This document shows positions 33,723 through 51,111 of a DNA stretch of 64,000 nt, one piece after another. Source of the stretch: Chloroflexota bacterium (GTDB lineage: Bacteria; Chloroflexota; Dehalococcoidia; JACVQG01; JAHKAY01); the NCBI GenBank assembly GCA_018825785.1, contig JAHKAY010000006.1:42332-106331 (forward strand), written 5' to 3'. Positions within the stretch are counted from its first letter, which is position 1, and the number at the start of each line of letters is the position of its first letter. The notes beneath the pieces are model-generated. The model saw nothing but the letters and a program-made list of their open reading frames with translations, was not told the DNA's origin and did no database searches. The position numbers were made by a program, and so were the translations under genes.

Positions 33723-33744
33723 CTGGAGGATGCCATGATTCCGG

Positions 33745-34269: not shown

Positions 34270-35018
34270 TGAAGGAGAGTATGAGGCCGTCCATCTCCGT
34301 AATCATCCCTGCTCTCAACGAGGAAAAGGCTGTGGGGCCCACCGTGGAGGCGCTGCTGGCAGCCCTGGACGACAGGTTCAGCCGGTACGAAATCCTGATT
34401 TTCGATGATGGCAGCACGGACGGCACAGGAGACTTGGCGGAAACCCTGGCGACCCGAGACGCAAACATCAGGGTGGTGCACAATCCCAGGAACATGGGCC
34501 TGGGCTACAACTATAGAAGGGGGGTGGAACTGGCTCAGAACGACTACGTGGTCCTTTTTCCGGGGGATAATCAGTTCCCCGCTGATTCCATGGCGGAACT
34601 CTTGCGCCATGTAAGCTGGGCAGACATTATCATCCCGTATCATACCAATGACCGCATCCGACCCTGGCACCGAAGGCTGATTTCCCGCCTCTTCATACTG
34701 ACCATGAACCTCCTGTTCGGACTGGGGGTCAAGTATTACACGGGAACTGTCATCCACAGGAGAGAGTTAATTCGCTCTGTCCCCATCTCGTCCACAGGCT
34801 TCGCGTATCAGGCTGAGGCCTTAACGCGGCTGCTCAGGTCAGGGCACAGCTACCTTGAGGTGGGCATACAAATCCAGGAGAGAGAATTTGGCACCACTAC
34901 TATGTTCAGCTTGAAGAACATCCGGAATGTGCTCACAACTGTGGCCAGACTCTTTGGGGATATCCGCATCCGAGGTGGAAAGAGGTATAACAAGCGCCCC
35001 AAGAGGATAATCCGGTGA
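34266..35018 (+). CDS. family 2 glycosyltransferase (polyprenol-phosphate sugar synthase-like)
   Basis: 250 aa. ISVIIPALNEEKAVGPTVEALL...ILIFDDGSTDGT...NMGLGYNYRRG...PGDNQFP shows the GT-A DxD-type motifs. Confidence 0.8.
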   Translation: MMKESMRPSISVIIPALNEEKAVGPTVEALLAALDDRFSRYEILIFDDGSTDGTGDLAETLATRDANIRVVHNPRNMGLGYNYRRGVELAQNDYVVLFPGDNQFPADSMAELLRHVSWADIIIPYHTNDRIRPWHRRLISRLFILTMNLLFGLGVKYYTGTVIHRRELIRSVPISSTGFAYQAEALTRLLRSGHSYLEVGIQIQEREFGTTTMFSLKNIRNVLTTVARLFGDIRIRGGKRYNKRPKRIIR

Positions 35019-36511
35019 AAATCCTGTTCGTTGTCCAGACTATAGATTTCATTGACCCCATTGGCATGATGCTGATGTCTGCTCTGGCCAAGAAGAAAGG
35101 CCATAGAACCCGTCTGGCAGTCATCAGCCGGGAAAACCTGCTGGATAGAATCGCCGGGCTTAAACCAGACATAGTCGCCTACAGTGCCTCCACGGGTGAG
35201 CACAAATATTACATAGAGGCTAACAAGGTAGTTAAGGCCAGGTTCCCTCATATCTTCACCATCATGGGTGGGGCCCATACTACCTTCTATCCCGAGTGCA
35301 TAAGTGAGAGCACCCTGGACGCGGTCTGTGTGGGTGAGGGGGACGAGGCCTTCCCCGAGCTACTGGGGGCCCTGGAGAGAGGGCAGGATATTTCCGGAAT
35401 TCGGAATATCGTCACCCGCGCCGGGCAAAGGAATGGCCTCCGGCCTCTTTTTGAAGACCTGGACAGCCTGCCCTTCCCCGATAGGGAGCTATTCTATAAG
35501 ACCACAGAGATGGGGCAGTTCCCCCTCAAGAGCTTCATGGCCTCCCGGGGGTGTCCTTATCCCTGCACCTACTGCTTCAACCATGCCTTCAGGAAGCTCT
35601 ACCGGGGCATGGGCAAGCTGGTCCGAAGGCACTCGGTGGACTACGTCATAGAAGAGGTGGCCCAGGTAAAGAGGCGGTATCGTCTGGATGTGGTGAAGTT
35701 CTACGACGATATCTTCGCCTACCGGGTGGATGACTGGCTGGAGGACTTTGCCAAAAAATACAGGAGGGAGATAGGCCTCCCCTTCCATTGCCTCACCAGG
35801 GCGGACCTGATGACGGAGGATGTGGCCAAATTGCTCAAGGAGGCAGGCTGCTTCTCCATCAGCATGTCCATTGAGGCGGGGAACCCCCAGTTCCGCAATG
35901 AAGTCCTGAAGCGAAACATGACCGATGAGCAGATCATCCGCGCCTTCCATATCTGCCGCAAATCTGGCATCAAGACCTTCTCCAACAATATCATTGGCCT
36001 TCCTTATGCCACGATACAGAATGAGATTGAAACCCTGGACCTGAACCTCAAATGCAAGGTCTCGTATGCCGAGTTCCCTATCTTCCACCCCTATCCCAGG
36101 ACAGAACTGGGTGACTTCTGTATTGAGAAGGGGATATGGAAGGGCAACTATGCCCAGCTCCATATGTCCTATATGAACCGTTCCCCCCTTTCCTGTTTTG
36201 CCGAGAAAGAAAAGGCCGTGCAGAAGAACCTGGCCGAGCTGGGCCTTCTCGTCATCTGGTTCCCCTTCCTGAGGAACCTGGTAGTGAAGCGGCTCATCTA
36301 TCGGCCCCACACCAGACTCTTCCTCTGGGCTTATGTCCTAGCCAAAGCGTATCTGGTGCGGAAGCGAGTTTATCCGGTGAAGTTGAAGGTAGGGGACGTG
36401 GTCAGGCTCCTTCGCAAGACGTTCAGTCTAGAGACCTTCAAGCATAGCGATGAGCAGCTTCTCATCGATAAGGGAAGCCCGCGAAGGAACAGTCAATGCC
36501 AGGAGCTGTGA
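35015..36511 (+). CDS. B12-binding-domain radical SAM enzyme (class B)
   Basis: 498 aa. The N-terminal Rossmann-like B12 domain (KILFVVQTIDFIDPIGMMLMSALAKKKGH) is followed by SRGCPYPCTYC (CxxxCxxC). It has a GTGA overlap with the GT2 gene. Confidence 0.8.
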   Translation: MKILFVVQTIDFIDPIGMMLMSALAKKKGHRTRLAVISRENLLDRIAGLKPDIVAYSASTGEHKYYIEANKVVKARFPHIFTIMGGAHTTFYPECISESTLDAVCVGEGDEAFPELLGALERGQDISGIRNIVTRAGQRNGLRPLFEDLDSLPFPDRELFYKTTEMGQFPLKSFMASRGCPYPCTYCFNHAFRKLYRGMGKLVRRHSVDYVIEEVAQVKRRYRLDVVKFYDDIFAYRVDDWLEDFAKKYRREIGLPFHCLTRADLMTEDVAKLLKEAGCFSISMSIEAGNPQFRNEVLKRNMTDEQIIRAFHICRKSGIKTFSNNIIGLPYATIQNEIETLDLNLKCKVSYAEFPIFHPYPRTELGDFCIEKGIWKGNYAQLHMSYMNRSPLSCFAEKEKAVQKNLAELGLLVIWFPFLRNLVVKRLIYRPHTRLFLWAYVLAKAYLVRKRVYPVKLKVGDVVRLLRKTFSLETFKHSDEQLLIDKGSPRRNSQCQEL

Positions 36512-36523
36512 AAGGAGGCAAGA

Positions 36524-37678
36524 ATGAAGGTGGGGTACTCGTACCTGCTTCAGCAGTTTGATGTCCGGCCAGGCAAGATGAAAGTGTCCTATATGGACCT
36601 TCCCAGGGGGACCAACGCCACCGAAATCCTCCGGGCTCTTCGGGAGCAGCTCAAAGTCTGTAACTTTACGCTGGGCCCGGAGGTAGCCGAGTTTGAGGCG
36701 AAGTTCGCCGCCCTGCACGGGACCAAACAGGCCATAGGGGTGAATTCAGGGACAGATGCGCTTTTCCTTACAATGAAGGCTGTGGGCATTGGGCCCGGAG
36801 ATGAGGTTATCACTGTTCCCAACAGCTTCATCGCCACAGCAGCAGCCATCGCAAATACAGGAGCCCGGCCTGTCTTTGTGGACGCGGGGGATGATTACAA
36901 TATCAATCCTGACCTGATTGAAGAAGCTGTCACGCCGCGCACCAGGGCCATCCTCCCTGTGCACCTTACGGGAAACCCCGCCGATATGCCCAGGATAATG
37001 GAGATAGCGCACAGGTACGGACTGCTGGTAATTGAAGATGCGTGCCAGGCAGTGAGCGCTTCTATCAATGGAAAGCCCGTCGGTTCCTTTGGCATCTCCG
37101 GTTGTTTCAGCCTGCACCCGCTCAAAAATCTCAACGTCTGGGGGGACGGTGGGGTGCTCACTACCGACTCTGATGAGCTGGCCGAGAAACTCCGGTTGAT
37201 GAGAAATCACGGCCTGAAAAACCGGGACGAATGCGAATTCTTCGCCTACAATAGCCGGCTGGATACAGTTCAGGCGATTGTTGCCTTAAGACTTATGCCT
37301 GCTCTGGAGGCCGCCACCGAGGCCCGCATCAGGCACGCTCGGGTCTATGATGAGGCCTTTTCGCAACTGGGCGAGTTGATCAAGGTGCCTCCCCGCAAAG
37401 CTCAGGTGAGGCAGGTGTTCCATACATACGTAGTTCAAGCCAAGGATAGAGACAATCTGTATGAGTATCTCTGTTCCAATGGCGTAGAGGCCAAGATCCA
37501 TTATCCCATACCCATTCATCTTCAGAAGGCATCGCGTTATCTTGGCTACAAGGAGGGCGACTTCCCCCTGTGCGAGGCTCAGGCGAGGTCCATTATCACC
37601 CTTCCCGTGCACCAGCATCTAACAGAGATACAGCTGGAATACGTCGTTGGCAAGGTAGGAGAATTCTACGGAGAATGA
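36524..37678 (+). CDS. DegT/DnrJ/EryC1/StrS-family PLP-dependent sugar aminotransferase
   Basis: 384 aa. FTLGPEVAEFEAKFAALHGTKQAIGVNSGTDALFLTMKAVGIGPGDEVITVPNSFIATAAAI supports the call. The PLP lysine context is FSLHPLKNL. Confidence 0.88.
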   Translation: MKVGYSYLLQQFDVRPGKMKVSYMDLPRGTNATEILRALREQLKVCNFTLGPEVAEFEAKFAALHGTKQAIGVNSGTDALFLTMKAVGIGPGDEVITVPNSFIATAAAIANTGARPVFVDAGDDYNINPDLIEEAVTPRTRAILPVHLTGNPADMPRIMEIAHRYGLLVIEDACQAVSASINGKPVGSFGISGCFSLHPLKNLNVWGDGGVLTTDSDELAEKLRLMRNHGLKNRDECEFFAYNSRLDTVQAIVALRLMPALEAATEARIRHARVYDEAFSQLGELIKVPPRKAQVRQVFHTYVVQAKDRDNLYEYLCSNGVEAKIHYPIPIHLQKASRYLGYKEGDFPLCEAQARSIITLPVHQHLTEIQLEYVVGKVGEFYGE

Positions 37679-37996: not shown

Positions 37997-40147
37997 ATGG
38001 CAAAAGGGAGAAAGGAACGCTCTTTGAATATATTAGGAGGAAGGTCGGCACTTCACCGGGGTGCCCTCTTCCCTTTGTGGGTCTTTCTGGCATTTTTTGT
38101 CTTTATCACGGTGCTTTATAGAAGCACCCTCTTTGATACGCCAAGGTCCGACCACGTTGAGATATTCGCCATCTTCCAAGACCTCACTTTTCCTCAAGAT
38201 ATTGCCCAGATAGCCTTTATGGAGTTTTTCGGCCACCCCAGATTCCAGCCCCTGGCCTGGCTCTTCCACTTCTTTCAGATAAAGGCCTTTGGTATGAATT
38301 TCATTTGTTACCACCTGGTCATCATTGGCCTGCATGCCCTCAATGGCACGCTTCTCTTGGGTTTGCTTTACGCCCTGTCTCGAAAGCTCCTCTTTTCCTT
38401 CTTTACTGCCCTTGTGTTCATCTCCCTATTTACTCATCTTCCCCTGATTGCCTGGCCGATAGCCTCCTACTCCCTCCTCAGTGTCACCTTGAGCCTTTCC
38501 GCTCTGCTCAGTCTGCTCAAGTTCTATCAGAGTTCCAACAGGGCTTTCCTATATGTTTCCTATTCGTTCGCCTTTGTGGCATTGTTTCTATACGAGCTGA
38601 ATTTGATAGTCCCTGCATTCATCTTCCTCTTTGCTGTGGGACTCGGTTGGGCAGCCGCTAGTAAGAAGCGCCTGATTTTGCAGAACTTATGTCTGGTAGC
38701 AATGGTCTATTTCGTTTATGGCGGGCTGTATTTGTGGCTCGTGCCTAGATATGCGGGGCTGCCGGAGCATGTCCTGAGTGGGCAGAGCGCCTGGCTCGCC
38801 CTGGCCGCAGTGCCCATCGAGTTTTTCAACACGGTGTTCGGCCACAACGTTTTTGCCACATCAAGGGTGGTAATTGATGAACTGTCCTTCTATGTGCCAT
38901 TTACAGTGAAGTCTTTCTCAATGAACACCATGGAGCCGGGCCTGGTCAAGCTCAACCTTCTGGTATATCTGGTCCTGTTGACCCTGGCTATCGCGTTGCG
39001 CAGACCGGAAAGGGGCCGGGGCTTGTGGTTATTCCTGCTGGCCCTCTGGGCCTTTGGCTACACTGCTATGATATTTCTCGGTCGGGGGGTGGCCTATGTT
39101 CTAAGTCAAGCGAGGCATGCTTACTTTCCGAGTATGCTGCTCCTCTTCATTGGCGCTCATTTCTATGAGCGCTATTTCTCACAGGGGTGGGCTCTGGCCA
39201 GGAGAGACGGCTCTTACTTCCTGGGCAAGTATGGTGGAGTGGTGGTTTTGATGGCTGGGGTCTTTTTCATCAATGTTAATGTAGCCAAAATATCCTGGAC
39301 TCTGCATGAGTACATGGGATACCGTTCCTATCCCAACACCATTTACTACACAGCTAGAGACTGGCTATCCCAGCCTGAGAACAGGGACAATAGCCTGTTA
39401 ATTTCGGTTCCAACTTATCCGCCCGAGGAGAAGCTGGCTTGGGGTGCGGATATACTGCCGGACCTATTCCTCTCAGACCCCCGCATCACCAAGAGTTTTC
39501 AGCAAGCTACTCATATTTTGGAATGGGGCGAGGGCCAGGCCTCGCCTTCAATCACGGAGCTCAGCCGTTACCCATCAGGGAATGCCAGTGATGACTTCAG
39601 CATTACGTTTGGCATCATGCCGCACCCACAAATCACCGAGGATTATCTGGAGGTGCTTGGTGCTTCGGCTGAGCCTGGCGTGGAACGATTTGGCAAGCAA
39701 TGGTGGCTACGGCTCTACTTCGACCAGTCGAGGAACCTCCCCGGGGACATAGCCGGCAGGGCCAGGGTGGTCCTGGGCTACTCCCAGGGCAGCTACGGGC
39801 ACATCATTGACGGGCGGGTTTTCAGCAGTCAACCGATAACCATAGGGCGGAGCCGAATGACCCACATTGTATTGGTGAAAGATGCTGGAACCTTCGGGGT
39901 GATTGTTAATGGGGAGCTGCTGGAAAAGGCTCAAGACATCACGGATGAGGACCTACAGAATATTGAACTTCCCCTGGGAAAGCTTTATCGGATGGGTTAC
40001 CGCAAGCCGTACTACTATGCCCACACTTTCATTGAGTTTGGAAGGAGCCGCTTTTCAATCCAGGATAGAGAGAAAGGCTATATCTTCAAAGAAATTCGCT
40101 TTAATCCTAAAGGATTTCAGGAATATCACATGTCTTTAGACTTCTAG
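37997..40147 (+). CDS. large polytopic membrane protein (716 aa) with a C-terminal extracytoplasmic ConA/LamG-like domain; possible GT-C-type glycosyltransferase
   Basis: ORF track entry. About 11-13 hydrophobic helices occupy the first ~430 aa. A soluble ~280-aa tail follows, containing ...RMTHIVLVKDAGTFGVIVNGELL..., a LamG-like strand pattern. G+C is about 48-50% by hand count. Confidence 0.5.
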   Translation: MAKGRKERSLNILGGRSALHRGALFPLWVFLAFFVFITVLYRSTLFDTPRSDHVEIFAIFQDLTFPQDIAQIAFMEFFGHPRFQPLAWLFHFFQIKAFGMNFICYHLVIIGLHALNGTLLLGLLYALSRKLLFSFFTALVFISLFTHLPLIAWPIASYSLLSVTLSLSALLSLLKFYQSSNRAFLYVSYSFAFVALFLYELNLIVPAFIFLFAVGLGWAAASKKRLILQNLCLVAMVYFVYGGLYLWLVPRYAGLPEHVLSGQSAWLALAAVPIEFFNTVFGHNVFATSRVVIDELSFYVPFTVKSFSMNTMEPGLVKLNLLVYLVLLTLAIALRRPERGRGLWLFLLALWAFGYTAMIFLGRGVAYVLSQARHAYFPSMLLLFIGAHFYERYFSQGWALARRDGSYFLGKYGGVVVLMAGVFFINVNVAKISWTLHEYMGYRSYPNTIYYTARDWLSQPENRDNSLLISVPTYPPEEKLAWGADILPDLFLSDPRITKSFQQATHILEWGEGQASPSITELSRYPSGNASDDFSITFGIMPHPQITEDYLEVLGASAEPGVERFGKQWWLRLYFDQSRNLPGDIAGRARVVLGYSQGSYGHIIDGRVFSSQPITIGRSRMTHIVLVKDAGTFGVIVNGELLEKAQDITDEDLQNIELPLGKLYRMGYRKPYYYAHTFIEFGRSRFSIQDREKGYIFKEIRFNPKGFQEYHMSLDF

Positions 40148-40152
40148 GCGAT

Positions 40153-43100
40153 GTGGGCTGGAAAATGGAGAAGATGAAAAGGCTATCAAGATTACGAGAA
40201 GAAATGTTGGGAGGGTTGCCCAAGCATCTTCTGTTCCTGGCGCTGGTGGCATTCCGGGTCTTTGGGCTTTTGCAGCACGAAATGTGGCGGACTGAGGCAC
40301 AGCTACCCCTGATGGTGAGAGATAGTCAGTCATTCGGCCAACTGCTGCACTGGCAATCATACGGAAGAGAACACATCCTCTGGCCCAGCATGCTATATGG
40401 TATGAAAATGCTGGGCCTGGACGCGGTGGTCGCAGGGCAGTGGCTACATCTAGGTCTCTCCATCATCCTCTTGGGCGTCATCTTTTATGGTATTCCACGC
40501 CTGCCCCTTATTATCAGGGCATCAGTGGGCTCTTCATTCTTCCTGATGTACGAATACAGCGCCATAACCAGAGTATATGGAGTGACAGCTTTACTGCTGG
40601 CGATATTTGTGATGCTGGAACTGCGCATCCGAAGAGGCATTCTGTGGAAAGCATTGACGCTCTTTTTCATGTCTCTTTCCAGCAATGTCGGTTTGGTACT
40701 TGCTATCGCCCTCGCTGTCTACCTGTTTGCCAAGCGTTCGGAGGAGCAGTGGCATACACGGGCTATGGGGGCCGGCATTGTCGCCTTAGGCATAGGGCTC
40801 AGTATTGCCACAGCGCTGCCTCCTGCAGACCTCAGCGAAGCGCCATGGCTTGTGGCCTATCGGGCTGATGCCTCTCGATACTGGGGTATACCGCATCTCC
40901 TCCCAACGACCGCCAGAATGTTTCTTGATGGCTTCCTCTATATTCCAATAATGACTTCACCACACTGGTATGAACCAACTTCCTGGTCCGAGCCTCAATC
41001 GCTCTTGTCCGGTGTGATATCAGAATACAAAGTTGCCACCTATCTCATCGGGTTAGCGGTTATCGCGTTGGCGGTACGGTTTCTATGGCACCTGTTTCGC
41101 ATAAGCAAGCCTATTGCACTGGGTGTTGCCACCCTCTGGGGAGGCAACCTGCTTGCCTGGTCAGTGATGCACCCCGGCTACACCCGGCATTTTGGCATTC
41201 TACTCCTGGGCACCCTTGGGCTATTTGCTCTAGCTGCAGACATGAGGAAAGGTTTCTCCGTGAAAGGGATGACCATCATTGTCGTGGTCATTCTGGCTAT
41301 CCAGAGCGCGTCTGGATTCTGGGCTGTTTATGCTGAGGTTGGAGACTCTTTCTCCCAATCCAAGAATCTGGCCCAATGGTGGCAGGCCAATTATCCTGAA
41401 GAAACGCCCTATGTTTTTCCCGACCATGTGGGTGCAACACTCAGCCTGTATACGGGGGGCTACGCCTATTCCCTGGCATCAGAGAGGGAGGAAGCAGTCT
41501 CCTTCGTTCGTGAGAGCGAAGAATTCGCACAGACATTTTCTCCAGCCTTAATCAGCAACCTGGACTTAAGAGGAGATAGCCCCTTTCTCATTACCAACTT
41601 CCCGTATCATGCCCTCCTGGATGGAGGTAAAACCATCGTGGAGCCGGTCCGCGCTTTCCAGTCCGCAGTAGCTTTCAATGAGTCCTTCTGGGTTCACCGG
41701 GTCCGCCACGGAAGCGAAAGCGAGCTATGGACTTTCAAGTTTTTGCCATTTGAAGGCCAATTCTGGACGGTAGAGACCTCTCAACATAATTGGCAACAAA
41801 ATGTTATAGAGCAGCCTGAGCCGAGGTTTGATAATGAAACTGGTTCTGCAATCGAGATAAAGATAAAGTTCTTAGAGGCACCGAACACTGACCCCAATGC
41901 CCTGGTCTTTCAGCTCCTGGACGGAAGAAGGCCGTTAAAGGTGTCTTTCTTTGGAGACGGATTTAGAATTCAATATGACGTTCTGAGAACCAGGTATGAA
42001 ATAGACACGACGGACGATTTTCATGTTTACCGTTTCACCTTAAGGAGAAATACGGTAGAGGCATATGTGGATGGCAAGAAGGTTGGTTCCAGCTATCTTA
42101 GTGCTGAAACAGAAGATAAGAGGGTCCTCTTAGGGAATGTCGGCACTAGGGGCGAGAATATAGCAGCACAAATCAAGTATGTGGCCTACTCTGCCAGTGG
42201 GGCACTGCCACCAGAAGGGGAACAGGAGCCAGAGGAAGCCGAAATATGGACCATGTTTACTGATATGCAGATGTCACCCGATGCTCCCCCTGCCGCTTGG
42301 GCAGGGAATGGGACATTTTCTGTGAAGTCGGTTGTAGATGGTGTGCTAACAGTAGCTACCAGGGGTACTGATTTAGGACACTTCTCACAACTTGTGCCAG
42401 AATTCGATAACGCCGTGGGCAGCACGGCTGAAGTAAGGCTTAAGCTTCTGGATGGCCCCAAAACCGATTCTGACGGGGCTATGCTGTCGATTTCCGATGG
42501 GTTGAGGGAAGCAAAAATAGCCTTCTTTACCGACCACATTAATATTCTTGACCAGAGTGAGTTCAAGAGATTCAGCTGGATGGATACTACCGATGATTTT
42601 CACACCTACCGGATAGCCATCATTGGGGATAGTCTGAGAGTGTACGTGGATGGCGCGGAGGTGGCTGCGGCGACCCTGCGCCAGCAGGCTACCGGGAGGC
42701 AAGTCCTGTTCGGCGATTTCAGCACCAGCGCAGGTGAGAATATGGGTGTCAGGGTGGACTACCTGGCCTACTCCGTTAACGGGGCTAAGGCCCCGGATGG
42801 GTCGTCCATCAAGACTGTGGAAGGTGGTGAAGAAGAGCAGGACATTCCATGGACATCGGCCAAAGGCGGCTTCGTAATCAGGACCGTGGGCAAGGAAAAT
42901 GAACCGGCCGGAACCGGCTATCCCATCAAGGAATTTGACAACTCCCTGGGTTCTACCCTCGAGGTGAAGATGAGGATTCTGGAGGCACCCGCTTCAGGAT
43001 TCAATGGGGGAGCACTTTCTCTCATAGATGGCCAGAGAGAGGGGAAACTTAGCTTCTTCAACGATAGAGTTGAGATACGCGACGTGAACGATTTTAGACA

Positions 43101-43335
43101 AGCATATGAGTTAGACACTACTGATGGGTTCCACGTCTACAGGCTAACCATCGTTGAAGATACCCTGAAGGCGTATGTTGACGGGATGGAGGTGGCGATG
43201 GTGACACTGGCCAACAGTAACAAGGAGAAGAAGATACTGTTTGGGGATTTCAGCCCCGAAGAGGGCGAGAATATATATGCCCAGGTTGAGTACCTGGCCT
43301 ATTATGTGGGTGGGGCCGTGTCCCCCAGACCATGA
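40153..43335 (+). CDS. very large polytopic membrane protein (1060 aa) with three tandem ConA/LamG-like ectodomain repeats
   Basis: ORF track entry. The N-terminal ~400 aa are multi-TM. They are followed by a linker domain and three repeats of 130-190 aa sharing the blocks FDN..GS, DG.R..K..FF.D, DTTD.FH.YR, YVDG..V, LFGD.S...GEN and Y(L/V)AY. Confidence 0.55.
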   Translation: MGWKMEKMKRLSRLREEMLGGLPKHLLFLALVAFRVFGLLQHEMWRTEAQLPLMVRDSQSFGQLLHWQSYGREHILWPSMLYGMKMLGLDAVVAGQWLHLGLSIILLGVIFYGIPRLPLIIRASVGSSFFLMYEYSAITRVYGVTALLLAIFVMLELRIRRGILWKALTLFFMSLSSNVGLVLAIALAVYLFAKRSEEQWHTRAMGAGIVALGIGLSIATALPPADLSEAPWLVAYRADASRYWGIPHLLPTTARMFLDGFLYIPIMTSPHWYEPTSWSEPQSLLSGVISEYKVATYLIGLAVIALAVRFLWHLFRISKPIALGVATLWGGNLLAWSVMHPGYTRHFGILLLGTLGLFALAADMRKGFSVKGMTIIVVVILAIQSASGFWAVYAEVGDSFSQSKNLAQWWQANYPEETPYVFPDHVGATLSLYTGGYAYSLASEREEAVSFVRESEEFAQTFSPALISNLDLRGDSPFLITNFPYHALLDGGKTIVEPVRAFQSAVAFNESFWVHRVRHGSESELWTFKFLPFEGQFWTVETSQHNWQQNVIEQPEPRFDNETGSAIEIKIKFLEAPNTDPNALVFQLLDGRRPLKVSFFGDGFRIQYDVLRTRYEIDTTDDFHVYRFTLRRNTVEAYVDGKKVGSSYLSAETEDKRVLLGNVGTRGENIAAQIKYVAYSASGALPPEGEQEPEEAEIWTMFTDMQMSPDAPPAAWAGNGTFSVKSVVDGVLTVATRGTDLGHFSQLVPEFDNAVGSTAEVRLKLLDGPKTDSDGAMLSISDGLREAKIAFFTDHINILDQSEFKRFSWMDTTDDFHTYRIAIIGDSLRVYVDGAEVAAATLRQQATGRQVLFGDFSTSAGENMGVRVDYLAYSVNGAKAPDGSSIKTVEGGEEEQDIPWTSAKGGFVIRTVGKENEPAGTGYPIKEFDNSLGSTLEVKMRILEAPASGFNGGALSLIDGQREGKLSFFNDRVEIRDVNDFRQAYELDTTDGFHVYRLTIVEDTLKAYVDGMEVAMVTLANSNKEKKILFGDFSPEEGENIYAQVEYLAYYVGGAVSPRP
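41824..43314 (+). repeat. three tandem coding repeats (LamG-like modules) inside the 1060-aa ORF
   Basis: The repeats begin at about 41824 (RFDNETGS), 42397 (EFDNAVGS) and 42928 (EFDNSLGS). They end at about 42200, 42783 and 43314 (YVAYSASG, YLAYSVNG, YLAYYVGG). Confidence 0.7.
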
Positions 43336-43347
43336 TTGGAGGGACTC

Positions 43348-44829
43348 ATGCATGACGTGCTGCTAATCAATCCGCCTTCAGCTTTCTCAACCTATAAGGG
43401 GACAAAGGTTGGCGTCTATGTGCAACTCTATCCGGTATTGTCCCTGGCTTGCCTGGCGGCCATGCTGAGGGAGAAGGGCTCTGGCGTTTCCATACTTGAC
43501 CTGGGGATAGAGCAGTACCCTTGGCAGGTGCTGGAGGCAAAGCTGAGCGAGTCAAAGTCGCGCATTATAGGGGTAACCTGTACAACGCCGCTGTATCCTG
43601 AGGTAGTCCAGCTAAGCCGGGCTATCAGGCAGAGGGTTGGCAATGGTACGGTGCTTGTCGTTGGCGGGCCACATCCTTCAGCCCTGCCGGCGGAAACGCT
43701 GCTGGAGTCTGACTTTGACATCGCCGTTGTAGGCGAGGGCGATGAGACAATGGTTGAAATAGCTGAGGGGAAGAAGCTGTCCGATATCAAGGGTATCTTC
43801 TACAAGGATGGGGAAGGGATATCATCCACCGCGCCTCGGGAGCGCATCAAGGACCTGAATGCACTCCCCTTCCCGGCCCTTGACCTCTTTGATGCGAAGC
43901 GATACCGCTGTTCCAGGCTGGTTTCCAGGAAAACCCCAATGAGTGACCTGATGACCAGCCGGGGATGCGTTTTCAACTGTAGCTTCTGTGGCAAGAAGGT
44001 CTTTGGACGGAGGTTTATATCTAAGTCGCCGGAGAAAGTGATTGAGGAAATCAAGCACACGCTGAGTCTAGGTTTTAAGGAGATTCGCGTTGTGGATGAT
44101 ATGTTCACCACCAACATGGACAGGGCCAAGACAATCTGTGAAATGATACTGAGGGAGAGGTTGCGTTTCCCGTGGAACCTGGCAGCGGGACTCAGGGTGG
44201 AATGCATCGATGAGGAGTTCCTCCGTTTGGCCAAACGCGCTGGACTGTATCAGGTCTCTATCGGCTTTGAGAGTGGCGACCAGGATTGCCTGGATTCAAT
44301 TGCCAAGGGCATTACCCTTGAGCAGAGCATGAGGGCCATGCATATGGTAAAGAAAGTCGGCCTGGAGAGCGTGGGATTCTTTATGTTGGGCCTGCCGGCC
44401 GAGAGTGAGGAGAGCATGAAGAAGACCATTGACTTCGCCGTGAAACTGATGCCGGATTTCGCCAAGGTTACCATTCTCATGCCCCTGCCAGATGCCAGGC
44501 TATTCTGGGAGTGGGAGAGGCAGGGGCTTATCAAGAGCCGGAACTGGAGGGAGTATAAGCTCCACGGGGGCGGCGCCGTTTACCAGCATCCAACGCTGGA
44601 CCGTGAAAAGCTGGAGCAGTATTATGATCTCTTCTACCGGAGATTCTATCTTAACCCGAAATACCTTTTCAGAAGAGCCGGAATCGCCATTTCCAGAGGT
44701 ACCTTTTTCCTTGAGCTGTACTACGGCGCCAAGACCTTTCTCCCCAGCGTGTTCGGACCACATCCCAAGCCCGCCCGCCCTTCTGCAGAGGAGCAACATG
44801 CCCGACTAACCGAGAAGGAATACCTCTAA
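43348..44829 (+). CDS. B12-binding-domain radical SAM enzyme (class B), second copy in the locus
   Basis: MHDVLLINPPS...LACLAAMLREKGSGVSILDL is the B12-binding-like N-terminus. It is followed by TSRGCVFNCSFC (CxxxCxxC). The track start TTG 43336 abuts the upstream stop. ATG 43348, after GGAGGG, is preferred. Confidence 0.8.
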   Translation: MHDVLLINPPSAFSTYKGTKVGVYVQLYPVLSLACLAAMLREKGSGVSILDLGIEQYPWQVLEAKLSESKSRIIGVTCTTPLYPEVVQLSRAIRQRVGNGTVLVVGGPHPSALPAETLLESDFDIAVVGEGDETMVEIAEGKKLSDIKGIFYKDGEGISSTAPRERIKDLNALPFPALDLFDAKRYRCSRLVSRKTPMSDLMTSRGCVFNCSFCGKKVFGRRFISKSPEKVIEEIKHTLSLGFKEIRVVDDMFTTNMDRAKTICEMILRERLRFPWNLAAGLRVECIDEEFLRLAKRAGLYQVSIGFESGDQDCLDSIAKGITLEQSMRAMHMVKKVGLESVGFFMLGLPAESEESMKKTIDFAVKLMPDFAKVTILMPLPDARLFWEWERQGLIKSRNWREYKLHGGGAVYQHPTLDREKLEQYYDLFYRRFYLNPKYLFRRAGIAISRGTFFLELYYGAKTFLPSVFGPHPKPARPSAEEQHARLTEKEYL

Positions 44830-44867
44830 TAACATGGCTGGCTCGAAATTGACCGGCCACAGAAAGG

Positions 44868-46055
44868 ATGTACCTTGAGATGCCTAGAATCAAGTTAGTC
44901 GCTCTGACGGTACTCTTATTGGCAATGACAATGATGATGAGTGGCTGTCTTCAACAGGTGGCTCGGACTACAGCTGAAGGTCCCACTGTAGCCCCGGAGC
45001 CAGCCCCAAGCCAGACTCCAACTCTGTCTCCTTCTTCTCAACTCCCTCGGTCCCCAGCACCCCCCACGGTGTTGGGCAAACAGGGGGCAGACCTGAGCGG
45101 ATACAGCAAAGTGGAGCTGAACGATGACCAGATTGAGGTGAGCAGTGTATTCCAGGGCTACGGAGGAGGGAATCTCATCAGGGATACTGGCAGTTTCTGG
45201 CACATAGGAGTCCCGAAGGAAAGCGACCAGGCATGGGCAATCATTGACTTGAGGAGTGGGATGCAGTTGGTTGTGATTGCGGTCAGGCCCCGCTCGGACC
45301 ACCTATCACACCTGTGGAAAGTAGACAACGCTACGCTTGAGGGGGGCAATGACAGCAAGGCATGGGACACTTTGGCCAAGCTCAGACTAGACCACGATGC
45401 GCTAAATGGAAGAGACTGGATATCTTTTATGCTTTCAGAGGGTGTCGGTCCATACCGGTACTACCGTCTTCTTATCAATGACCCTGATTTCATCTCCATG
45501 GCCGGGCTTGCATTGTACACTGAAGATGCCATCGCAATCGTCCCAGGGCATGAGCCTGCAGATGCTGAGACAGGGCTCCCAACCGCGTTGGGCAAGCAAG
45601 GAGGGGACCTCAGCGGATACCGCAAGGTGGAGTTGCTCCCTGGCCAGGTTGAGGTGAGCAGCAGCATGGAGAACTATGGTAAAGGCAACCTCTTGTCAGA
45701 TGCTGCTGGTGCTACTTTCTGGCACGTTGGATTGCCGAAAGAAACTGACGAAGCCTGGGTGTTGGTTGACTTAAGGAGCGAGGGCACTCTGGCTGCCTTA
45801 GGCATCAGGCCACGCACAGACTATCTGACACATCTGTGGAAAGGCGGTTCTGCCGTCTTACAAGGCAGTAACAATAGAGAGGAGTGGGTCCCAGCGGTCG
45901 AACTAGTGCTGAACCAAGGGGAGCTCAACGCCGTTGACTGGATAATATTTGTACTTCCCAATGATATAGGCCCATACCGGTACTATCGTCTTCTTATCAC
46001 TGACCCTGATTTTATTTCCATGGGCGGGTTTGAACTGTTCCGCAAAGACCCCTGA
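44868..46055 (+). CDS. putative lipoprotein with two tandem discoidin (F5/8 type C)-like domains
   Basis: 395 aa. The signal peptide has the lipobox LAMTMMMSGC. A Pro/Ser-rich linker follows, then two ~155-aa repeats (LGKQG.DLSGY.KVEL...FWH.G.PKE.D.AW...DLRS...PR.D.L.HLWK...GPYRYYRLLI.DPDFISM). The domain family is assigned by eye. Confidence 0.55.
   Translation: MYLEMPRIKLVALTVLLLAMTMMMSGCLQQVARTTAEGPTVAPEPAPSQTPTLSPSSQLPRSPAPPTVLGKQGADLSGYSKVELNDDQIEVSSVFQGYGGGNLIRDTGSFWHIGVPKESDQAWAIIDLRSGMQLVVIAVRPRSDHLSHLWKVDNATLEGGNDSKAWDTLAKLRLDHDALNGRDWISFMLSEGVGPYRYYRLLINDPDFISMAGLALYTEDAIAIVPGHEPADAETGLPTALGKQGGDLSGYRKVELLPGQVEVSSSMENYGKGNLLSDAAGATFWHVGLPKETDEAWVLVDLRSEGTLAALGIRPRTDYLTHLWKGGSAVLQGSNNREEWVPAVELVLNQGELNAVDWIIFVLPNDIGPYRYYRLLITDPDFISMGGFELFRKDP
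45069..46052 (+). repeat. internal tandem duplication (two ~470-nt coding repeats)
   Basis: Repeat 1 spans about 45069-45529 and repeat 2 about 45585-46052. For example, 45450-45506 and 45972-46028 are identical at about 50 of 57 nt by eye. Confidence 0.7.
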
Positions 46056-46179
46056 GCCTTCATCCCGCCCCCGATGGCGCGCCGACCAAGTGGAAGGCTG
46101 CATCTCTGTCGGCGATAATTTGGAAGGCCCTCCCAGGCAAGTCATCCTGGGGCTTTGCTTCTGCTTCCCGGCCGTTGCG

Positions 46180-47919: not shown

Positions 47920-47978
47920 GGGCGGTTAGCTCAGCGGTTAGAGCGCCTGCTTCACACGCAGGAGGCGGTGGCTCAAAG
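47920..47978 (+). pseudogene. tRNA-Val(CAC) fragment: 5' acceptor arm to mid T-loop; the 3' T-stem and acceptor arm are missing
   Basis: The sequence is GGGCGGT-TA-GCTC-AGCGGTTA-GAGC-G-CCTGC-TTCACAC-GCAGG-AGGC-GGTGG-CTCAAA... The D arm and anticodon arm (anticodon CAC) fold canonically. No CCACC or ACCGCCC complement follows. TATAAT lies at 47901-47906 upstream. G+C drops immediately after. Confidence 0.7.
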
Positions 47979-48117
47979 CTAGCGTCTACCGATTTAGCTA
48001 CGAAATTGGGGCGACAAAGCAAGAGGTCTTTTGTTTTACTCCTATTAGTCTTGATGGTGGCCCTTCCGGTCTTCATCGATCGCCTCCTATGCATTATTTT
48101 GAACTTCTGCGAGAGAC

Positions 48118-48324
48118 TCACCGTTTTGTCTCCTTGGTCAATTCCTCAATTCTTAAGAGCGCCAGCGGGGACGGCTTGAAGGTGCCTTTCTCCCAACGCC
48201 TCACTGTGATGACACTAACCCCCAACCTACGAGCCAATCCATCTTGGCTTAAACCTAGTTTGCGCCTCAATTCTCTTATCGATTCCCTATTCATGATATC
48301 ATATGATAGCTCATCTGCTACCAT
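48118..48324 (-). CDS. XRE-family helix-turn-helix transcriptional regulator
   Basis: 68 aa. IRELRRKLGLSQDGLARRLGVSVITVRRWEKG is a classic HTH_3 pattern. The gene lies in low-GC DNA. Confidence 0.8.
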   Translation of the reverse strand: MVADELSYDIMNRESIRELRRKLGLSQDGLARRLGVSVITVRRWEKGTFKPSPLALLRIEELTKETKR

Positions 48325-48400
48325 TAGTCAAGATGAGAACGTCGCCCCAATCTGAACCACAACGCCCAGCACCGACGCAGGCGTCCGGCCCAAGACATGG

Positions 48401-48759
48401 ATGCCGATTGCGGCCGGTATCCTCAGCATTGTTTGTGGTGCTACTGACTTACTTGTCGGAATACTATTTGCCGCCATTACCAACTACGAATGGCATGGCC
48501 TCCAACTTGTGTCAGCCATACCTGTTATTATCCTTGGGTAGTCGCCACAGCCGGTGGCATCTTTGCCATCAACAGGAGAAACGGGGGACTAGCCTTTGGC
48601 GGCGCCATTTGTGCTGCCATTTCCCCCGCATTTCTACTGGGTATCGCCGCAGTCATCCTTCTGGCACTATCAGAGAAAGAGTTCGCCAACCCTGAGGAAG
48701 ATGGAAAGCTGCCTTCAGGGCCGCTGCACCCCTGGTTTGAAGATGAACTCGGGCTCTAA
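48401..48759 (+). pseudogene. small (~120 aa) four-helix membrane protein gene split by a single frameshift
   Basis: In frame 2, ATG 48401 gives MPIAAGILSIVCGATDLLVGILFAAITNYEWHGLQLVSAIPVIILG and then TAG at 48539-48541. The hydrophobic continuation VVATAGGIFAINRRNGGLAFGGAICAAISPAFLLGIAAVILLAL... is in frame 1 (track ORF 48490-48759). The shift falls at a GGG run near 48536. Confidence 0.45.
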
Positions 48760-48839
48760 GGTCTGGGGCTCTCCTTCGGCATCGGCCAGGCTGGAGGTGG
48801 AGGTGCTCAAACGGGGGGGGAGAGGCTGAGGGAGCTGGT

Positions 48840-48858
48840 GGCTGTACGACGTACAGCC
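48840..48858. terminator. perfect 8-bp hairpin between convergent genes (possible terminator; no U-run)
   Basis: GGCTGTAC-gac-GTACAGCC directly abuts the stop (48859-48861) of the minus-strand molybdoenzyme gene. Confidence 0.3.
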
Positions 48859-51111
48859 CTATGCCTTTACCCATTTCTCAACCTGGACCAAAGCAGTGTT
48901 GGTGCAGAAGGCGCCACCCGGTGATTTGGCATCCCTGGTCAGCACATTGGCGCAGCCACCGTGGTCTATGCCTTTCCCATCGGGGTCATGCCAGGCACCC
49001 TCGGGGACATTCACTACACCGGGCATTATCCTCTGGGTAACCTCAGCGGGGAGAACTGTTTGTCCTCTATCATTGTAGACTCGAACCAGGTCGCCATTAC
49101 TGATGCCCCTGGCACGGGCATCGTCGGTGTTTATCTGCATGCGTTGAGGAATCAGCTCTCTGAGCCAAGGTAGGTTGTCAAACTGACTGTGGGCCCGCGC
49201 ACGGTGATGGGTGGTCAGCAGTTGCAGTGGATACTTCTTCGCCAGAGGGTCGTTCCGGCCCTCCCAGGCCTCAATATATTTGGGGATGGGAGGAAGCTGA
49301 GGGTCATTCCAGTCTGCCAGCTCTTGAGAACATATTTCGATCTTCCCCGAAGGAGTGGGGAAGGGACGATTCTCCGGGTCTTCTATTTGCTCCTTAAAGG
49401 CGACATAGGGCTTATCAGTTGGAAACTTGTACAAGGCCTTCTTCCTAAGTGTCTCGTAATCAGAACCTTCTTTATCTTTGGCAAAGACCTCTCTATACCC
49501 CTCCACTATGCCTTTTAGCCATTCCTCTTCTGTCTTCTCGTTGTAGTCATTGATACCCATTGCTTTGGCTATCCCCTCTGCTATCTCCAGGTGGGACTTG
49601 GATTCATGTAAAGGTTCTGCTGATTTGTTTACGAGGCCATACCAGGGGGTGGCGCCGCCACTGGTGAAGTCATTTCTTTCAAAGTAGGTATTAACCGGCA
49701 GCAAGATGTCGGCGAACTTGGCTGTGGCTGTCATGAACTGCTCCTGAACAGCGATAAACTCCACCGCCTTAAAAGCTTCAATAGTCTTGTTGGCATTGAG
49801 AATCTGGTTTACATAGTTGGTATTTGCCAGATAGAGGAGTCTGTAATCGGCAGGGTAGCCGCCGGCCTTGCCCTTCAATACTGCGTCTGCTATCTGGCCG
49901 ACATTTATCTTTGCACTGCTATTGGTGCTGGAGCCGCGCGCCTTGACCGTATTCCTGCGAGCAGGCCATCCCTCCTCAACCGGATTTCTGGGACTGCCCA
50001 TCCGCCCCTTTGTGCGGGCCAGGAAAGCCATCTCCCCACCCCAGTGCTCACCTCCCCATGACCTGCCTGCGGAACTTCCCCCGCTGATTCCTATATTGCC
50101 CGTCATGGCCGACAGGGCGATGGCAGCACGGTGGTATTGCTCTCCATAGGCAGTGCGCCCGGGGGCTATGCCAGCAATCAACGCTGCCGGCTTGGTGGTG
50201 GCGTATAGCCGGGCCAGCCTTGCGGTGGTATCTGCTTTCACGCCGGTGATGGACTCCGCCCAGGCAGGTGTCTTTGGTATGCTGTCTTCAATGCCCAAAA
50301 CATAGTCCCTGAATTTCTCTAAACCTACGGTATATTTATTGATAAATGTCTGGTCATGGAGGTTTTCCGTGATAATCACATAGGCCATTGCAATAAGCAT
50401 GGCTGCATCAGTACAGGGGTAAATGGGTATCCATTCATCGGCGAAGGTGGCTGTGGAATCTGTATACCTTGGGTCTATGGAAATGATTCTGGCACCGGCC
50501 TCCTTGGCCCGGGCCAAATAGTATGGCGTGTTACAGCGGTGGATTGTAACTGCGGGGTCCCACCCCCACATTATTATCAACCGGGAGTTGAGAAGGTCGT
50601 CTCTGGTGCTGTTGGTCATAGCCGTTCCGTAGGTAGCACATTCGGCAAAGACGCCACCCTCATAGGACATGAAACCCCAAAGTGGAGTATAACCTCCTGC
50701 CATGCAGAGCAATCTATGCATCGGCGTCATAGTGTGGAGGACATGGATATCGGCCAGTGAACAGAAGAAAATGATGGATGCTGGGCCGTAGGTATCTCTG
50801 ACCCGTATCAGTTCCTTAGCCACAGTAGAGAAGGCTTCGTCCCAGGAGATGCGCTCAAACTTCCCCTCCCCTCTGCTCCCGGCCCTCTTCATGGGGTACT
50901 TGAGGCGGTCTGGCGCATACAGACGCTGCCGGAAAGAGCGACATCTAAGGCAGGCCCGGAATTGAGGCTCTTCGCCGTCATCAGTCTCGATCCTGGTGAC
51001 CACGCCGTCTTTGACGTGGACTTTGAGGAGGCAGGCTCCACCACAATGGCTATTACATGCAGTATAGATGATGCTATCATTTTGCTCTGTTTGTCTGCTA
51101 TTCTCGCTCAT
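48859..51111 (-). CDS. molybdopterin oxidoreductase, DmsA-like catalytic subunit (DMSO reductase family) without a Tat signal
   Basis: 750 aa. The N-terminus YTACNSHCGGACLLKVHVKDGVVTRIETDD...FRACLRCRSFRQRLYAPDRLKYPMKRAGSRGEGKFERISWDEAF closely parallels E. coli DmsA as I remember it (CTVNCGSRCPLRMHV...ACLRGRSMRRRVYNPDRLKYPMKR). IIDPRYTD and WIPI.P.TDAA blocks are also present. There is no twin-arginine leader. Confidence 0.8.
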   Translation of the reverse strand: MSENSRQTEQNDSIIYTACNSHCGGACLLKVHVKDGVVTRIETDDGEEPQFRACLRCRSFRQRLYAPDRLKYPMKRAGSRGEGKFERISWDEAFSTVAKELIRVRDTYGPASIIFFCSLADIHVLHTMTPMHRLLCMAGGYTPLWGFMSYEGGVFAECATYGTAMTNSTRDDLLNSRLIIMWGWDPAVTIHRCNTPYYLARAKEAGARIISIDPRYTDSTATFADEWIPIYPCTDAAMLIAMAYVIITENLHDQTFINKYTVGLEKFRDYVLGIEDSIPKTPAWAESITGVKADTTARLARLYATTKPAALIAGIAPGRTAYGEQYHRAAIALSAMTGNIGISGGSSAGRSWGGEHWGGEMAFLARTKGRMGSPRNPVEEGWPARRNTVKARGSSTNSSAKINVGQIADAVLKGKAGGYPADYRLLYLANTNYVNQILNANKTIEAFKAVEFIAVQEQFMTATAKFADILLPVNTYFERNDFTSGGATPWYGLVNKSAEPLHESKSHLEIAEGIAKAMGINDYNEKTEEEWLKGIVEGYREVFAKDKEGSDYETLRKKALYKFPTDKPYVAFKEQIEDPENRPFPTPSGKIEICSQELADWNDPQLPPIPKYIEAWEGRNDPLAKKYPLQLLTTHHRARAHSQFDNLPWLRELIPQRMQINTDDARARGISNGDLVRVYNDRGQTVLPAEVTQRIMPGVVNVPEGAWHDPDGKGIDHGGCANVLTRDAKSPGGAFCTNTALVQVEKWVKA

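Follow-up and report, generated by a model that had tools for sequence, protein, structure and literature searches.

Membrane proteins with lectin-like ectodomains in a conserved glycan gene cluster of Dehalococcoidia: candidate GT-C glycosyltransferases

In multi-component transmembrane glycosylation, a GT-A-type glycosyltransferase (GT) makes a C55-P-sugar, a flippase of the GtrA or Wzx type moves it, and a GT-C enzyme transfers the sugar outside (PMC8035078). Variants include GacI, a GT-A without transmembrane (TM) helices that is helped by GacJ, a small protein with three TM helices, as well as systems with Wzx-type flippases; a separate acceptor-binding protein has been speculated about in the same review (PMC8035078). 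GT-C enzymes with appended carbohydrate-binding modules (CBMs) are represented by EmbC, AftD and the GT136 enzyme ORF12 (PMC11127046). Here we describe a 64,000-nucleotide stretch (the window) of contig JAHKAY010000006.1, assembly GCA_018825785.1, from a Dehalococcoidia bacterium of the Chloroflexota, and in it four adjacent genes that encode two large membrane proteins, P1 and P2, a B12-binding radical S-adenosylmethionine enzyme (rSAM_B) and a discoidin lipoprotein. On balance, we consider it probable that these genes form the transfer end of a conserved ~23-kb glycan cluster (~22.8-46.1 kb), through which a tailored heptose on polyprenyl phosphate is flipped and then transferred outside by lectin-bearing GT-C enzymes.

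In the proposed mechanism, GmhA, GmhB and an HldE-like fusion with reversed domain order would make a nucleotide-activated heptose. This heptose would be tailored by SDR proteins, by a DegT protein (amination), by a thiamine-dependent E1 pair (C-branching) and by two class-B radical SAM enzymes (further modification, e.g. C-methylation). A glycosyltransferase of family 2 (GT2) without TM helices, perhaps with the adjacent membrane protein of 174 amino acids (aa), would load the sugar onto polyprenyl phosphate, and a Wzx-like protein might flip the lipid-linked sugar. P1 and P2, and possibly a YfhO-like protein, would transfer the sugar to surface acceptors outside the membrane. The catalytic base could be the acidic residue just after TM1, namely D52 in P1 and E43 or E47 in P2, and the C-terminal ConA-like beta-sandwiches may hold the acceptor glycan. 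At the outer face, the discoidin lipoprotein may serve as an extra acceptor-binding helper or may itself be the substrate.

The membrane proteins P1 and P2

P1 is remotely homologous to PMT_2-type GT-C proteins. An exhaustive hmmsearch of 1.84 billion representative proteins with the P1 family profile found 4549 proteins at E<=1e-3, of which 95 reach E<=1e-10 and 40 reach E<=1e-30; no names are on record for the P1-like representatives. In a sample of 62 listed matches, Pfam PMT_2 was recognised in 12 and TPR repeats in 19. The closer sampled tier (~1e-41 to 1e-24) has no match to PMT_2 or any other Pfam membrane-domain model, and some of its members carry LamG or TPR, while many sampled matches near E 1e-10 consist of PMT_2 plus C-terminal TPR repeats. 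These PMT_2+TPR proteins are reached by the P1 family profile at E ~1e-10 to 1e-12 through query residues 76-208, and in P0096 and P0102, two matches inspected singly, the P1-profile region overlaps the PMT_2 stretch. A trimmed membrane-domain alignment (A7) revealed motifs common to P1 and its relatives, RFQPLAW / NWHPLTW, LHxxN and (Q/A)xR(H/Y)xY(F/L)P, and an invariant tryptophan, the W of HxxxVAW in the relatives, which aligns to W153 of P1 (THLPLIAW).

The acidic loop after TM1 of P1 contains D47 and D52, both invariant across the 10-member P1 family; among 62 superfamily members, at least 90% keep D52. TMTCs carry a DD motif in loop EL1 (PMC7801869), and solved GT-C enzymes have a catalytic Asp after TM1 (PMC11127046). 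Judged from position and conservation in the alignments, D52 is the predicted counterpart of both. In the AlphaFold2 model of P1 (pLDDT 58.8), Foldseek detected PglB/STT3 over ~500 columns (E ~1e-3, TM-score ~0.3, with a low-confidence model), and these GT-C oligosaccharyltransferases were the only membrane proteins among the P1 Foldseek matches listed. Due to the profile link to PMT_2 proteins, the shared motifs, D52 and the PglB/STT3 match, we assign P1 as a divergent GT-C protein of the PMT_2-like clan, with a beta-sandwich in place of the TPR domain of its relatives.

Known family models do not cover this protein. The membrane domain of P1 gave no Pfam or NCBIfam match, even when every family member was searched at E<=10; likewise, Pfam at E<=10 found PMT_2, the model for GT39-GT83, in none of 10 P1-family members, and a TPR match was absent from the family. 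Sequence and profile searches of the PDB with four alignments (A1, A3, A6, A7) gave no GT-C match, A6 matching designed TPR proteins only because TPR tails had contaminated the profile. A word-indexed search of 5.8 billion clusters returned nine relatives of P1 and five to six of P2, and these low numbers resulted in shallow alignments and poor structure models.

For P2, the argument is structural. Eleven long helices appear in the model of its N-terminal part (pTM 0.66, pLDDT 58.9), and the top six Foldseek matches are all GT-C proteins (AftB, AftA, STT3, ArnT), with probabilities of 0.98-1.00 but E-values of 2.5e-3 to 2.5e-2 and TM-scores of 0.3-0.4 from a low-confidence model; EmbB and ALG3 follow lower in the ranking. 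The sequence HE[MI]WR[TDA]E stands directly after TM1 in all four P2 homologues that have the N-terminus. As for P1, the membrane domain has no Pfam or NCBIfam match in any family member down to E<=10, and Pfam YfhO matches neither protein; in the window it matches only the separate 926-aa protein. Comparison by hhalign of P2 with the P1 superfamily gave a probability of 21%, with RTE aligned to RSD, and of 0.6% with a cleaner alignment, while comparison with the YfhO-like protein of the window gave 0.3% and nothing significant. From its model, P2 is probably, but not certainly, a GT-C protein. Paralogy of P1 and P2 was considered as well; neither BLASTP nor hhalign was significant, and detectable homology between the two is not claimed.

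Both proteins end in beta-sandwich domains. The C-terminal part of P1 resembles galectins, CBM40 and LamG modules in Foldseek. P2 has three C-terminal repeats of ~140 aa that are 36-44% identical to one another and match the Laminin_G_3, GH16 and 3-keto-disaccharide-hydrolase models, and homologues carry from three to at least six such ConA-like modules in tandem. If they work like the CBMs of EmbC, AftD and GT136 ORF12 (PMC11127046), the ConA-like domains, and with them the discoidin domains of the lipoprotein, would bind the acceptor glycan.

The surrounding cluster and its related loci

P1 and P2 relatives are found among the same donor-sugar genes elsewhere. Related loci were compared by BLASTP of the window proteins against all open reading frames (ORFs) of each locus. 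Scans of GTDB representative genomes added two loci and scans of JGI metagenomes 11; among the GTDB representatives, P1 relatives occur in two Dehalococcoidia bins only. The cluster is kept in about seven lineages with P1 identities of 36-75%. In gene order, loci L011/L015 (49-51% identity) contain DegT, GT2, transketolase halves, rSAM_A (the second B12-radical SAM enzyme of the cluster), two HD proteins, a homologue of the 174-aa protein, P1, P2, rSAM_B and the lipoprotein. L002/3 and L004/5 (P1 60-65%) combine P1, P2 and rSAM_B with the same sugar genes, and L001 (P1 48%) has SDR, HldE-like fusion, SDR, E1a, E1b, GT2, P1, rSAM_B, DegT, rSAM_A and lipoprotein, with its orthologues of the HldE-like fusion, SDR and E1 pair (29104-33722 in the window) at 58-69%. 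In L016 and L021 (P1 53-67%), GT2 is directly 5' of P1, and L006 (P2 41%) encodes HldE-like fusion, DegT, transketolase, E1, GT2 and then a YfhO-like protein directly before P2. Wherever a related locus has enough flank, it encodes orthologues of rSAM_A and DegT, and heptose-activation genes occur in most related loci with readable flanks. Since P1 and P2 always stand among the same donor-sugar genes, the conserved unit is the whole cluster and not the four genes.

The GT2 protein links this cluster to lipid carriers. Its full-length NCBIfam matches are solely to polyprenyl-P transferases (PpgS, ArnC, AglJ and a Dol-P-hexose transferase) and its full-length PDB matches are to DPMS (5mlz), ArnC (9hwj/9bhc) and GtrB (5ekp). 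We therefore regard it as a putative polyprenyl-phosphate sugar synthase that makes a lipid-linked donor. A GT2 protein of this kind beside GT-C candidates is the hallmark of multi-component transmembrane glycosylation. GT2 is part of the cluster and lies directly upstream of P1 in L001, L016 and L021, a context in which P1 and P2 may use a polyprenyl-phosphate-linked sugar.

The last 4 nt of the gene of the 174-aa protein are shared with the start of GT2, and orthologues of 46-49% identity occur in L002, L004 and L011/L015; by analogy, the protein is a possible membrane partner of GT2 in a GacJ-like role. Small membrane proteins with weak similarity to YdjM, a family of putative membrane-bound metal-dependent hydrolases, are encoded at this position of the window (33745-34269, +), in L002 (7804-8298) and in L011 (7054-7548). 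A role of the 174-aa protein as GtrA-type flippase is unsupported, as its similarity is to YdjM, weakly, and not to the GtrA type. The Wzx-like protein has multiple predicted TM helices and homologues at 28-29% near P1 in L004 and L008. The YfhO-like protein is a third GT-C-type candidate: a protein from the same sequence cluster is named 'YfhO family protein', and the 45% orthologue of the window protein in L006 is the one directly upstream of the P2 homologue.

The four genes at the end of the cluster are closely spaced on the + strand (Table 1), with 318 bp 5' of P1, 5 nt between P1 and P2, 0 nt between P2 and rSAM_B and 38 nt between rSAM_B and the lipoprotein gene. P2 probably starts at ATG 40165, giving 1056 aa, the length of the database copy P0010, which begins at Met5. 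For rSAM_B, the likelier start is ATG 43348, with GGAGG upstream and in agreement with homologue alignments, leaving a 12-nt gap after P2. A terminator-like hairpin 3' of the lipoprotein gene is the probable end of the transcription unit.

Table 1 Features of the cluster (positions in the window; parts of proteins follow their gene)
Feature	Position	Strand	Basis or remark
GmhB heptose-bisphosphate phosphatase	22779-23330	-	NCBIfam 178.5 bits, cut-off 178
GmhA-like SIS isomerase	23317-23913	-	62% identical to L002 SIS_2 gene
Wzx-like MOP flippase candidate, 437 aa	23907-25220	-	Polysacc_synt E 1.9e-4, below cut-off
SDR	25264-26289	-	domain match
YfhO-like membrane protein, 926 aa	26322-29102	+	Pfam YfhO E 5.9e-16, C-terminal part only
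Nucleotidyltransferase-kinase fusion, HldE domains in reversed order	29104-30684	+	domain matches
SDR epimerase/dehydratase	30697-31683	+	domain match
Thiamine-dependent E1 alpha/beta pair	31680-32642, 32646-33722	+	domain matches
174-aa membrane protein, 3-4 TM helices	33745-34269	+	hydropathy
GT2, 250 aa, no TM helix, basic C-terminal tail	34266-35018	+	Pfam Glycos_transf_2
rSAM_A, second B12-radical SAM, CPYPCTYC	35015-36511	+	domain match, motif
DegT-type sugar aminotransferase	36524-37678	+	domain match
P1, 716 aa	37997-40147	+	ORF list
P1 membrane domain, aa ~1-460	37997-39376	+	hydropathy, model
P1 acidic loop D47...R50-S51-D52 just after TM1	38135-38152	+	conservation
P1 C-terminal beta-sandwich, aa ~500-716	39494-40144	+	model, Foldseek
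P2, 1060 aa	40153-43335	+	ORF list
P2 putative GT-C membrane domain, aa 1-397	40153-41343	+	model, Foldseek
P2 HEMWRxE after TM1	40273-40296	+	conservation
P2 linker domain, aa 398-552	41344-41808	+	
P2 three ConA-like repeats	41815-42225, 42391-42807, 42919-43332	+	repeat comparison, Pfam
rSAM_B, 497 aa	43336-44829	+	ORF list
Discoidin lipoprotein, 395 aa	44868-46055	+	ORF list
Lipoprotein lipobox Cys27 (SGC)	44940-44948	+	signal peptide ...LLAMTMMMSGC
Lipoprotein discoidin (F5/8 type C) repeats	45063-45530, 45579-46052	+	Pfam
Terminator-like hairpin 3' of lipoprotein gene	46131-46152	+	terminator scan

rSAM_B contains a B12-binding domain (PF02310, 68.6 bits) and a Radical_SAM domain (PF04055, 87.1 bits) with the cluster motif C211VFNCSFC (C211-x3-C-x2-C). 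Its best NCBIfam model is HpnJ (TIGR03471) at 207.6 bits, far under the cut-off of 577.6, so that it is not an HpnJ equivalog, and its nearest solved structure is AprD4 (6fd2). HpnJ acts on a lipid-linked amino sugar, and AprD4 is an aminoglycoside sugar dehydratase. Orthologues of rSAM_B stand directly after P1 or P2 in L001, L002, L004 and L011/L015; their identity of 68-74%, in comparison to 48-65% for P1, is the highest in the block. Because rSAM_B is the most conserved protein, always lies beside GT-C genes and has as nearest model an enzyme that remodels a lipid-anchored amino sugar, one can speculate that it acts on a polyprenyl-phosphate-linked heptosamine and creates a C-methylated or rearranged (possibly ring-contracted) donor, which only the dedicated and so far unrecognised GT-C families of P1 and P2 can transfer. 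We hold this to be unlikely; if true, it would be the first case of a radical SAM enzyme tailoring a sugar on its lipid carrier in extracytoplasmic glycosylation, and would also define a new surface sugar of Dehalococcoidia and two new GT families.

In the lipoprotein, a signal peptide with a lipobox is followed by two F5_F8_type_C stretches (PF00754, 45 bits, cut-off 28.2) that are 54% identical to each other. The lipobox, the P/T-rich linker and the two repeats are all present in the orthologues from L001 (41%) and L011/L015 (49-51%); the lipobox is a clear IGGC in L011 and a less typical G-T-S-C in L001.

The original prediction, which was made on the DNA letters and described the four genes, can be judged against these data. 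It had placed all four ORFs correctly, and its gaps of 318 bp and of 5, 0-12 and 38 nt agree with ours, the 12-nt alternative start lying within the given range. A ConA/LamG-like tail on P1, three LamG-like repeats in P2, a B12-rSAM enzyme and a lipoprotein with two discoidin-like repeats were also recognised correctly, and no named family, be it YfhO, O-antigen ligase or another Pfam or NCBIfam model, indeed accounts for either membrane domain. The idea of GT-C-type enzymes with their own lectin-like ectodomains is the best reading of P1 (from profile and Foldseek) and of P2 (from Foldseek). Of the claimed ~12 TM helices in P1 and ~10-12 in P2, the polytopic nature is retained, whereas hydropathy and models favour ~10-11 in each and not 12, and the number in P1 falls within the ~8-13 expected of GT-C proteins; the N-terminus of P1 is basic (MAKGRKERS...), as would suit a position inside the cell. 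The four genes do co-occur elsewhere, in the order P1-P2-rSAM-lipoprotein in L011/L015, as P1-P2-rSAM in L002/3 and L004/5 and as P1-rSAM plus lipoprotein in L001. The notion of a self-contained four-gene module is not supported, as every locus with readable flanks also encodes a small membrane protein and a second B12-rSAM in addition to DegT, GT2 and either E1 or transketolase.

The related loci offer some further observations. In L008/L022 (P1 36%), from more distant Dehalococcoidia, the ConA-repeat array is encoded in a separate protein of ~2000 aa (~1977-2010 aa), whose gene immediately precedes that of a 1048-aa P1-like protein (3944-13030); this arrangement suggests that the lectin array can be traded between polypeptides. 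In L001, genes for VTC and DUF4956 proteins and for a 1374-aa protein (C-terminal F5/8C, weak CotH match) follow 3' of the lipoprotein orthologue (17582-22121) and could be further surface components tied to the cluster. Lineages in which split transketolase-like genes replace the E1 pair have two tandem genes for HD-domain phosphohydrolases (L002 6422-7807, L011 5687-7057, and L015), which are absent from the window; this combination suggests a variant donor pathway.

Alternative readings and base composition

Several points weigh against transfer of a lipid-linked heptose by GT-C enzymes. The organism is uncultured. What the data show is gene content, synteny, domain matches and the distant relationship of P1 to PMT_2-type GT-C proteins; donor identity, carrier loading, flipping, the flippase, the acceptor and what rSAM_B and the lipoprotein do are inferences, and the substrate of rSAM_B may be nucleotide- or lipid-linked. 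Where TMTCs have the Lys of the KET motif, P1 has Y199-E200. Pfam, PDB and hhalign comparisons did not connect P2 significantly with any known GT-C protein, with P1 or with YfhO. Both models are of low confidence (mean pLDDT 58.8 and 58.9), with Foldseek E-values of ~1e-3 and TM-scores of 0.3-0.4. With Pfam, no GtrA-type flippase was found in the cluster, the Wzx-like match is weak (E 1.9e-4), and the similarity of the 174-aa protein, weak as it is (E 0.014-0.06, three homologues), is to YdjM.

The alternative that survives best is protein O-glycosylation, in which P1 would modify Ser/Thr in Pro/Thr-rich linkers of surface proteins and the discoidin lipoprotein would be the substrate instead of a helper lectin. 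The detectable relatives of P1 are PMT_2+TPR proteins and belong to the protein O-mannosyltransferase clan (PMC7801869). Moreover, the window lipoprotein and both orthologues keep a Pro/Ser/Thr-rich linker right after the lipobox Cys (TTAEGPTVAPEPAPSQTPTLSPSS..., QAPATPTPTPTPVP..., STTAPALTPAPTTTQVPP...). However, lipoproteins of single-membrane bacteria often have P/T-rich linkers, whether these are glycosylated or not, and several loci (L002, L004) have no lipoprotein next to P1. The lectin-type beta-sandwiches of P1 and P2 suggest glycan acceptors, whereas the TPR repeats of the relatives bind protein. We consider this reading credible but clearly less probable than the main one.

More doubtful is a role of P1, P2 or both in processive polymerisation or ligation (Emb/Aft-like, Wzy- or WaaL-like), in which a whole polymer and not a single side-chain sugar would be built or attached. 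AftB, AftA and EmbB, which build arabinan, are among the best structural matches of P2, and lectin modules in tandem, in three to at least six copies, would suit the holding of a growing chain as in EmbC and AftD (PMC11127046). However, a Foldseek ranking obtained from a low-confidence model cannot separate GT-C subclasses. No Wzy or O-antigen-ligase signal was obtained with Pfam, even at E<=10, and the cluster has a single GT2 with no initiating phosphoglycosyltransferase seen.

Slightly less probable again is the reading of the original prediction, in which the four genes would be autonomous and horizontally acquired and would serve the polymerisation, ligation or remodelling of a glycan with no need of the upstream genes. 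In its favour are the 318-bp gap 5' of P1, the four-gene order conserved in L011/L015, and base composition. The four genes have a G+C content of 51.0-54.1% (GC3 57-67%), and the tetranucleotide distance from the flanks, which is 0.13-0.15 within the flanks themselves, rises from ~28 kb, peaks at 0.46 at 38-44 kb, where G+C is also lowest, and falls steeply at 46.1 kb; with this peak, the composition of the block is not a chance feature. The atypical composition had been predicted correctly, although the value of 48-50% came from hand counts that were a few points low; 50% is reached in some 1-kb windows of the block only. The upstream core had been put at 60% or more, which does not hold: the nine genes at 29104-37678 have 54-58% (GC3 64-72%), and only the YfhO-like gene (60.6%, GC3 74%) and the housekeeping flanks (pyrimidine operon, fabD and an acetolactate-synthase-like gene; 62-68%, GC3 77-86%) are that high. 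The right edge is sharp at 46055/46214, the jump beginning with the gene at 46214. Since the nine upstream genes are already intermediate, there is no sharp left border, and low G+C starts ~9 kb further upstream than the four genes. The gradual fall of G+C from ~29 kb over ~17 kb describes a gradient and not a four-gene island.

Gene order argues in the same direction. P1 and P2 are interleaved with DegT, GT2, rSAM_A and thiamine-enzyme genes in every related locus, and in L001 P1 lies between GT2 and rSAM_B, with DegT and rSAM_A between rSAM_B and the lipoprotein gene. Promoter and terminator scans of the 318-bp gap found no terminator-like site and weak promoter-like matches only. Horizontal acquisition may have occurred, but the labelled relatives (L001/L007, L006, L008) are Dehalococcoidia or Chloroflexota like the genome of the window, the metagenome contigs being without taxon; proteins more than 90% identical to CarB, PyrB and the YfhO-like protein are annotated as Dehalococcoidia or Chloroflexota as well.

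Finally, the idea that P2 is a membrane-anchored glycoside hydrolase or transglycosylase, prompted by repeat matches to Pfam Glyco_hydro_16 (E 7.1e-10) and partial NCBIfam matches to kappa-carrageenase and beta-glucanase, was rejected and is effectively refuted, because these matches span just 30-45 residues around a shared 'DFHxYR...YVDG' strand pair, score far under curated cut-offs (31.8 vs 350 bits), and the catalytic E-x-D-x(1,2)-E motif (ExDxxE) is nowhere in P2.

The rest of the window shows features of its own. On the left, the pyrimidine operon (pyrB, pyrC-like, carA, carB) lies at 9.5-17.1 kb, and a PyrR-binding-site RNA element (RF00515, 57.4 bits, 17659-17754, -) upstream of it confirms a housekeeping flank. 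A lone ORF of 193 aa (4084-4665, +) has 45% G+C within a region of 60-68%. On the right, Rfam reports a tRNA match at 47920-47988 (+) with 35 bits (gathering score 29), where ARAGORN makes no tRNA call. Just after it, a second atypical block (48000-54300, G+C ~53%, tetranucleotide distance 0.44) encodes on the minus strand a molybdopterin oxidoreductase, an Fe-S/FAD oxidoreductase and DAHP synthase, and may be a separate island beside a degenerate or unusual tRNA.

Comparison with described glycosylation systems

Dehalococcoidia are abundant in subsurface and marine environments, and to our knowledge no characterised glycosylation system is known from them. In the literature, we found no description of a heptose / B12-rSAM / GT-C cluster, nor of a surface glycosylation in Dehalococcoidia that matches it; a single paper with a loose connection came up. 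The cluster is a concrete and conserved candidate for the decoration of their surface. Both protein families are rare, with ~40 representative clusters for P1 at E<=1e-30 among 1.84 billion and a handful of homologues for P2 in the word-indexed search. The product of a heptose tailoring so rich in radical SAM enzymes would probably be a new monosaccharide. No concept is overturned by the cluster, which adds to the cases in which the recognition module of GT-C enzymes outside the membrane is exchanged, with TPR in the nearest relatives and ConA-like sandwiches here.

The operating principle, lipid-carrier-dependent extracytoplasmic glycosylation, is known already, and so is the architecture of a GT-C enzyme with its own lectin module. 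To speak of an undescribed system, as was done originally, is thus too strong, because the logic of GT2 synthase, flippase and GT-C (PMC8035078) and GT-C enzymes with CBMs, in EmbC, AftD and GT136 ORF12 (PMC11127046), have been described. New are two GT-C families without Pfam or NCBIfam model, the exchange of TPR for a beta-sandwich, tandem arrays of three to at least six ConA-like modules, three GT-C candidates for one GT2, a heptose pathway with two or three B12-rSAMs and thiamine enzymes, and the host, an uncultured member of the Dehalococcoidia.

Compared with GtrA/B/X, CsbB-GtcA-YfhO and GacI/J/K/L (PMC8035078, PMC5836110), the window likewise has a GT2 resembling polyprenyl-P synthases near polytopic GT-C-type proteins, and a YfhO-like protein is part of the cluster. 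The TM-less GT2 is preceded by a protein with three to four TM helices, like GacI with GacJ, and a Wzx-like candidate might correspond to GacK. In contrast to these systems, the window has three GT-C candidates for one GT2 and no GtrA-family protein, and its donor is apparently a heavily tailored heptose and not Glc, Gal or GlcNAc. Two B12-rSAMs and an E1 pair belong to its cluster, P1 and P2 fall in no named GT-C family, and the host is a member of the Dehalococcoidia.

Class-B radical SAM tailoring enzymes such as HpnJ, methylases of the GenK type and AprD4 share with rSAM_B the architecture of B12-binding and radical-SAM domains and the CxxxCxxC motif. Unlike them, rSAM_B scores far below equivalog cut-offs, and no hopanoid or aminoglycoside genes are nearby.

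In architecture, GT136 ORF12 from the three-component pentofuranose system of Citrobacter youngae (PMC11127046), EmbA/B/C and AftD resemble the window proteins with ~11 TM helices, an Asp after TM1 and a beta-rich C-terminal module. The ORF12 system has a lipid-linked monosaccharide donor, made by a dedicated synthase, and a transporter of the MOP/MATE type, which would have counterparts in the pathway proposed here. No sequence similarity of these enzymes to P1 or P2 was detected. Their modules are Ig-like CBMs, while those of the window are ConA/LamG-like, one in P1 and three in tandem in P2, with at least six in some homologues, and the donor of the ORF12 system derives from phosphoribosyl pyrophosphate (PRPP), that of the window apparently from a nucleotide-heptose.

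The PMT_2/TMTC O-glycosyltransferases of the GT-C class (PF13231; PMC7801869) are the sole annotated family that is reachable from P1 by sequence, at E ~1e-10 to 1e-12. P1 fails the Pfam PMT_2 model, has a single Asp in R-S-D instead of DD and Y-E in place of the K of KET, and ends in a beta-sandwich, whereas its relatives of the GT105 type end in TPR repeats. It shares with this family the N-in topology logic, the acidic EL1 motif after TM1, several sequence motifs and an extracytoplasmic C-terminal recognition domain.

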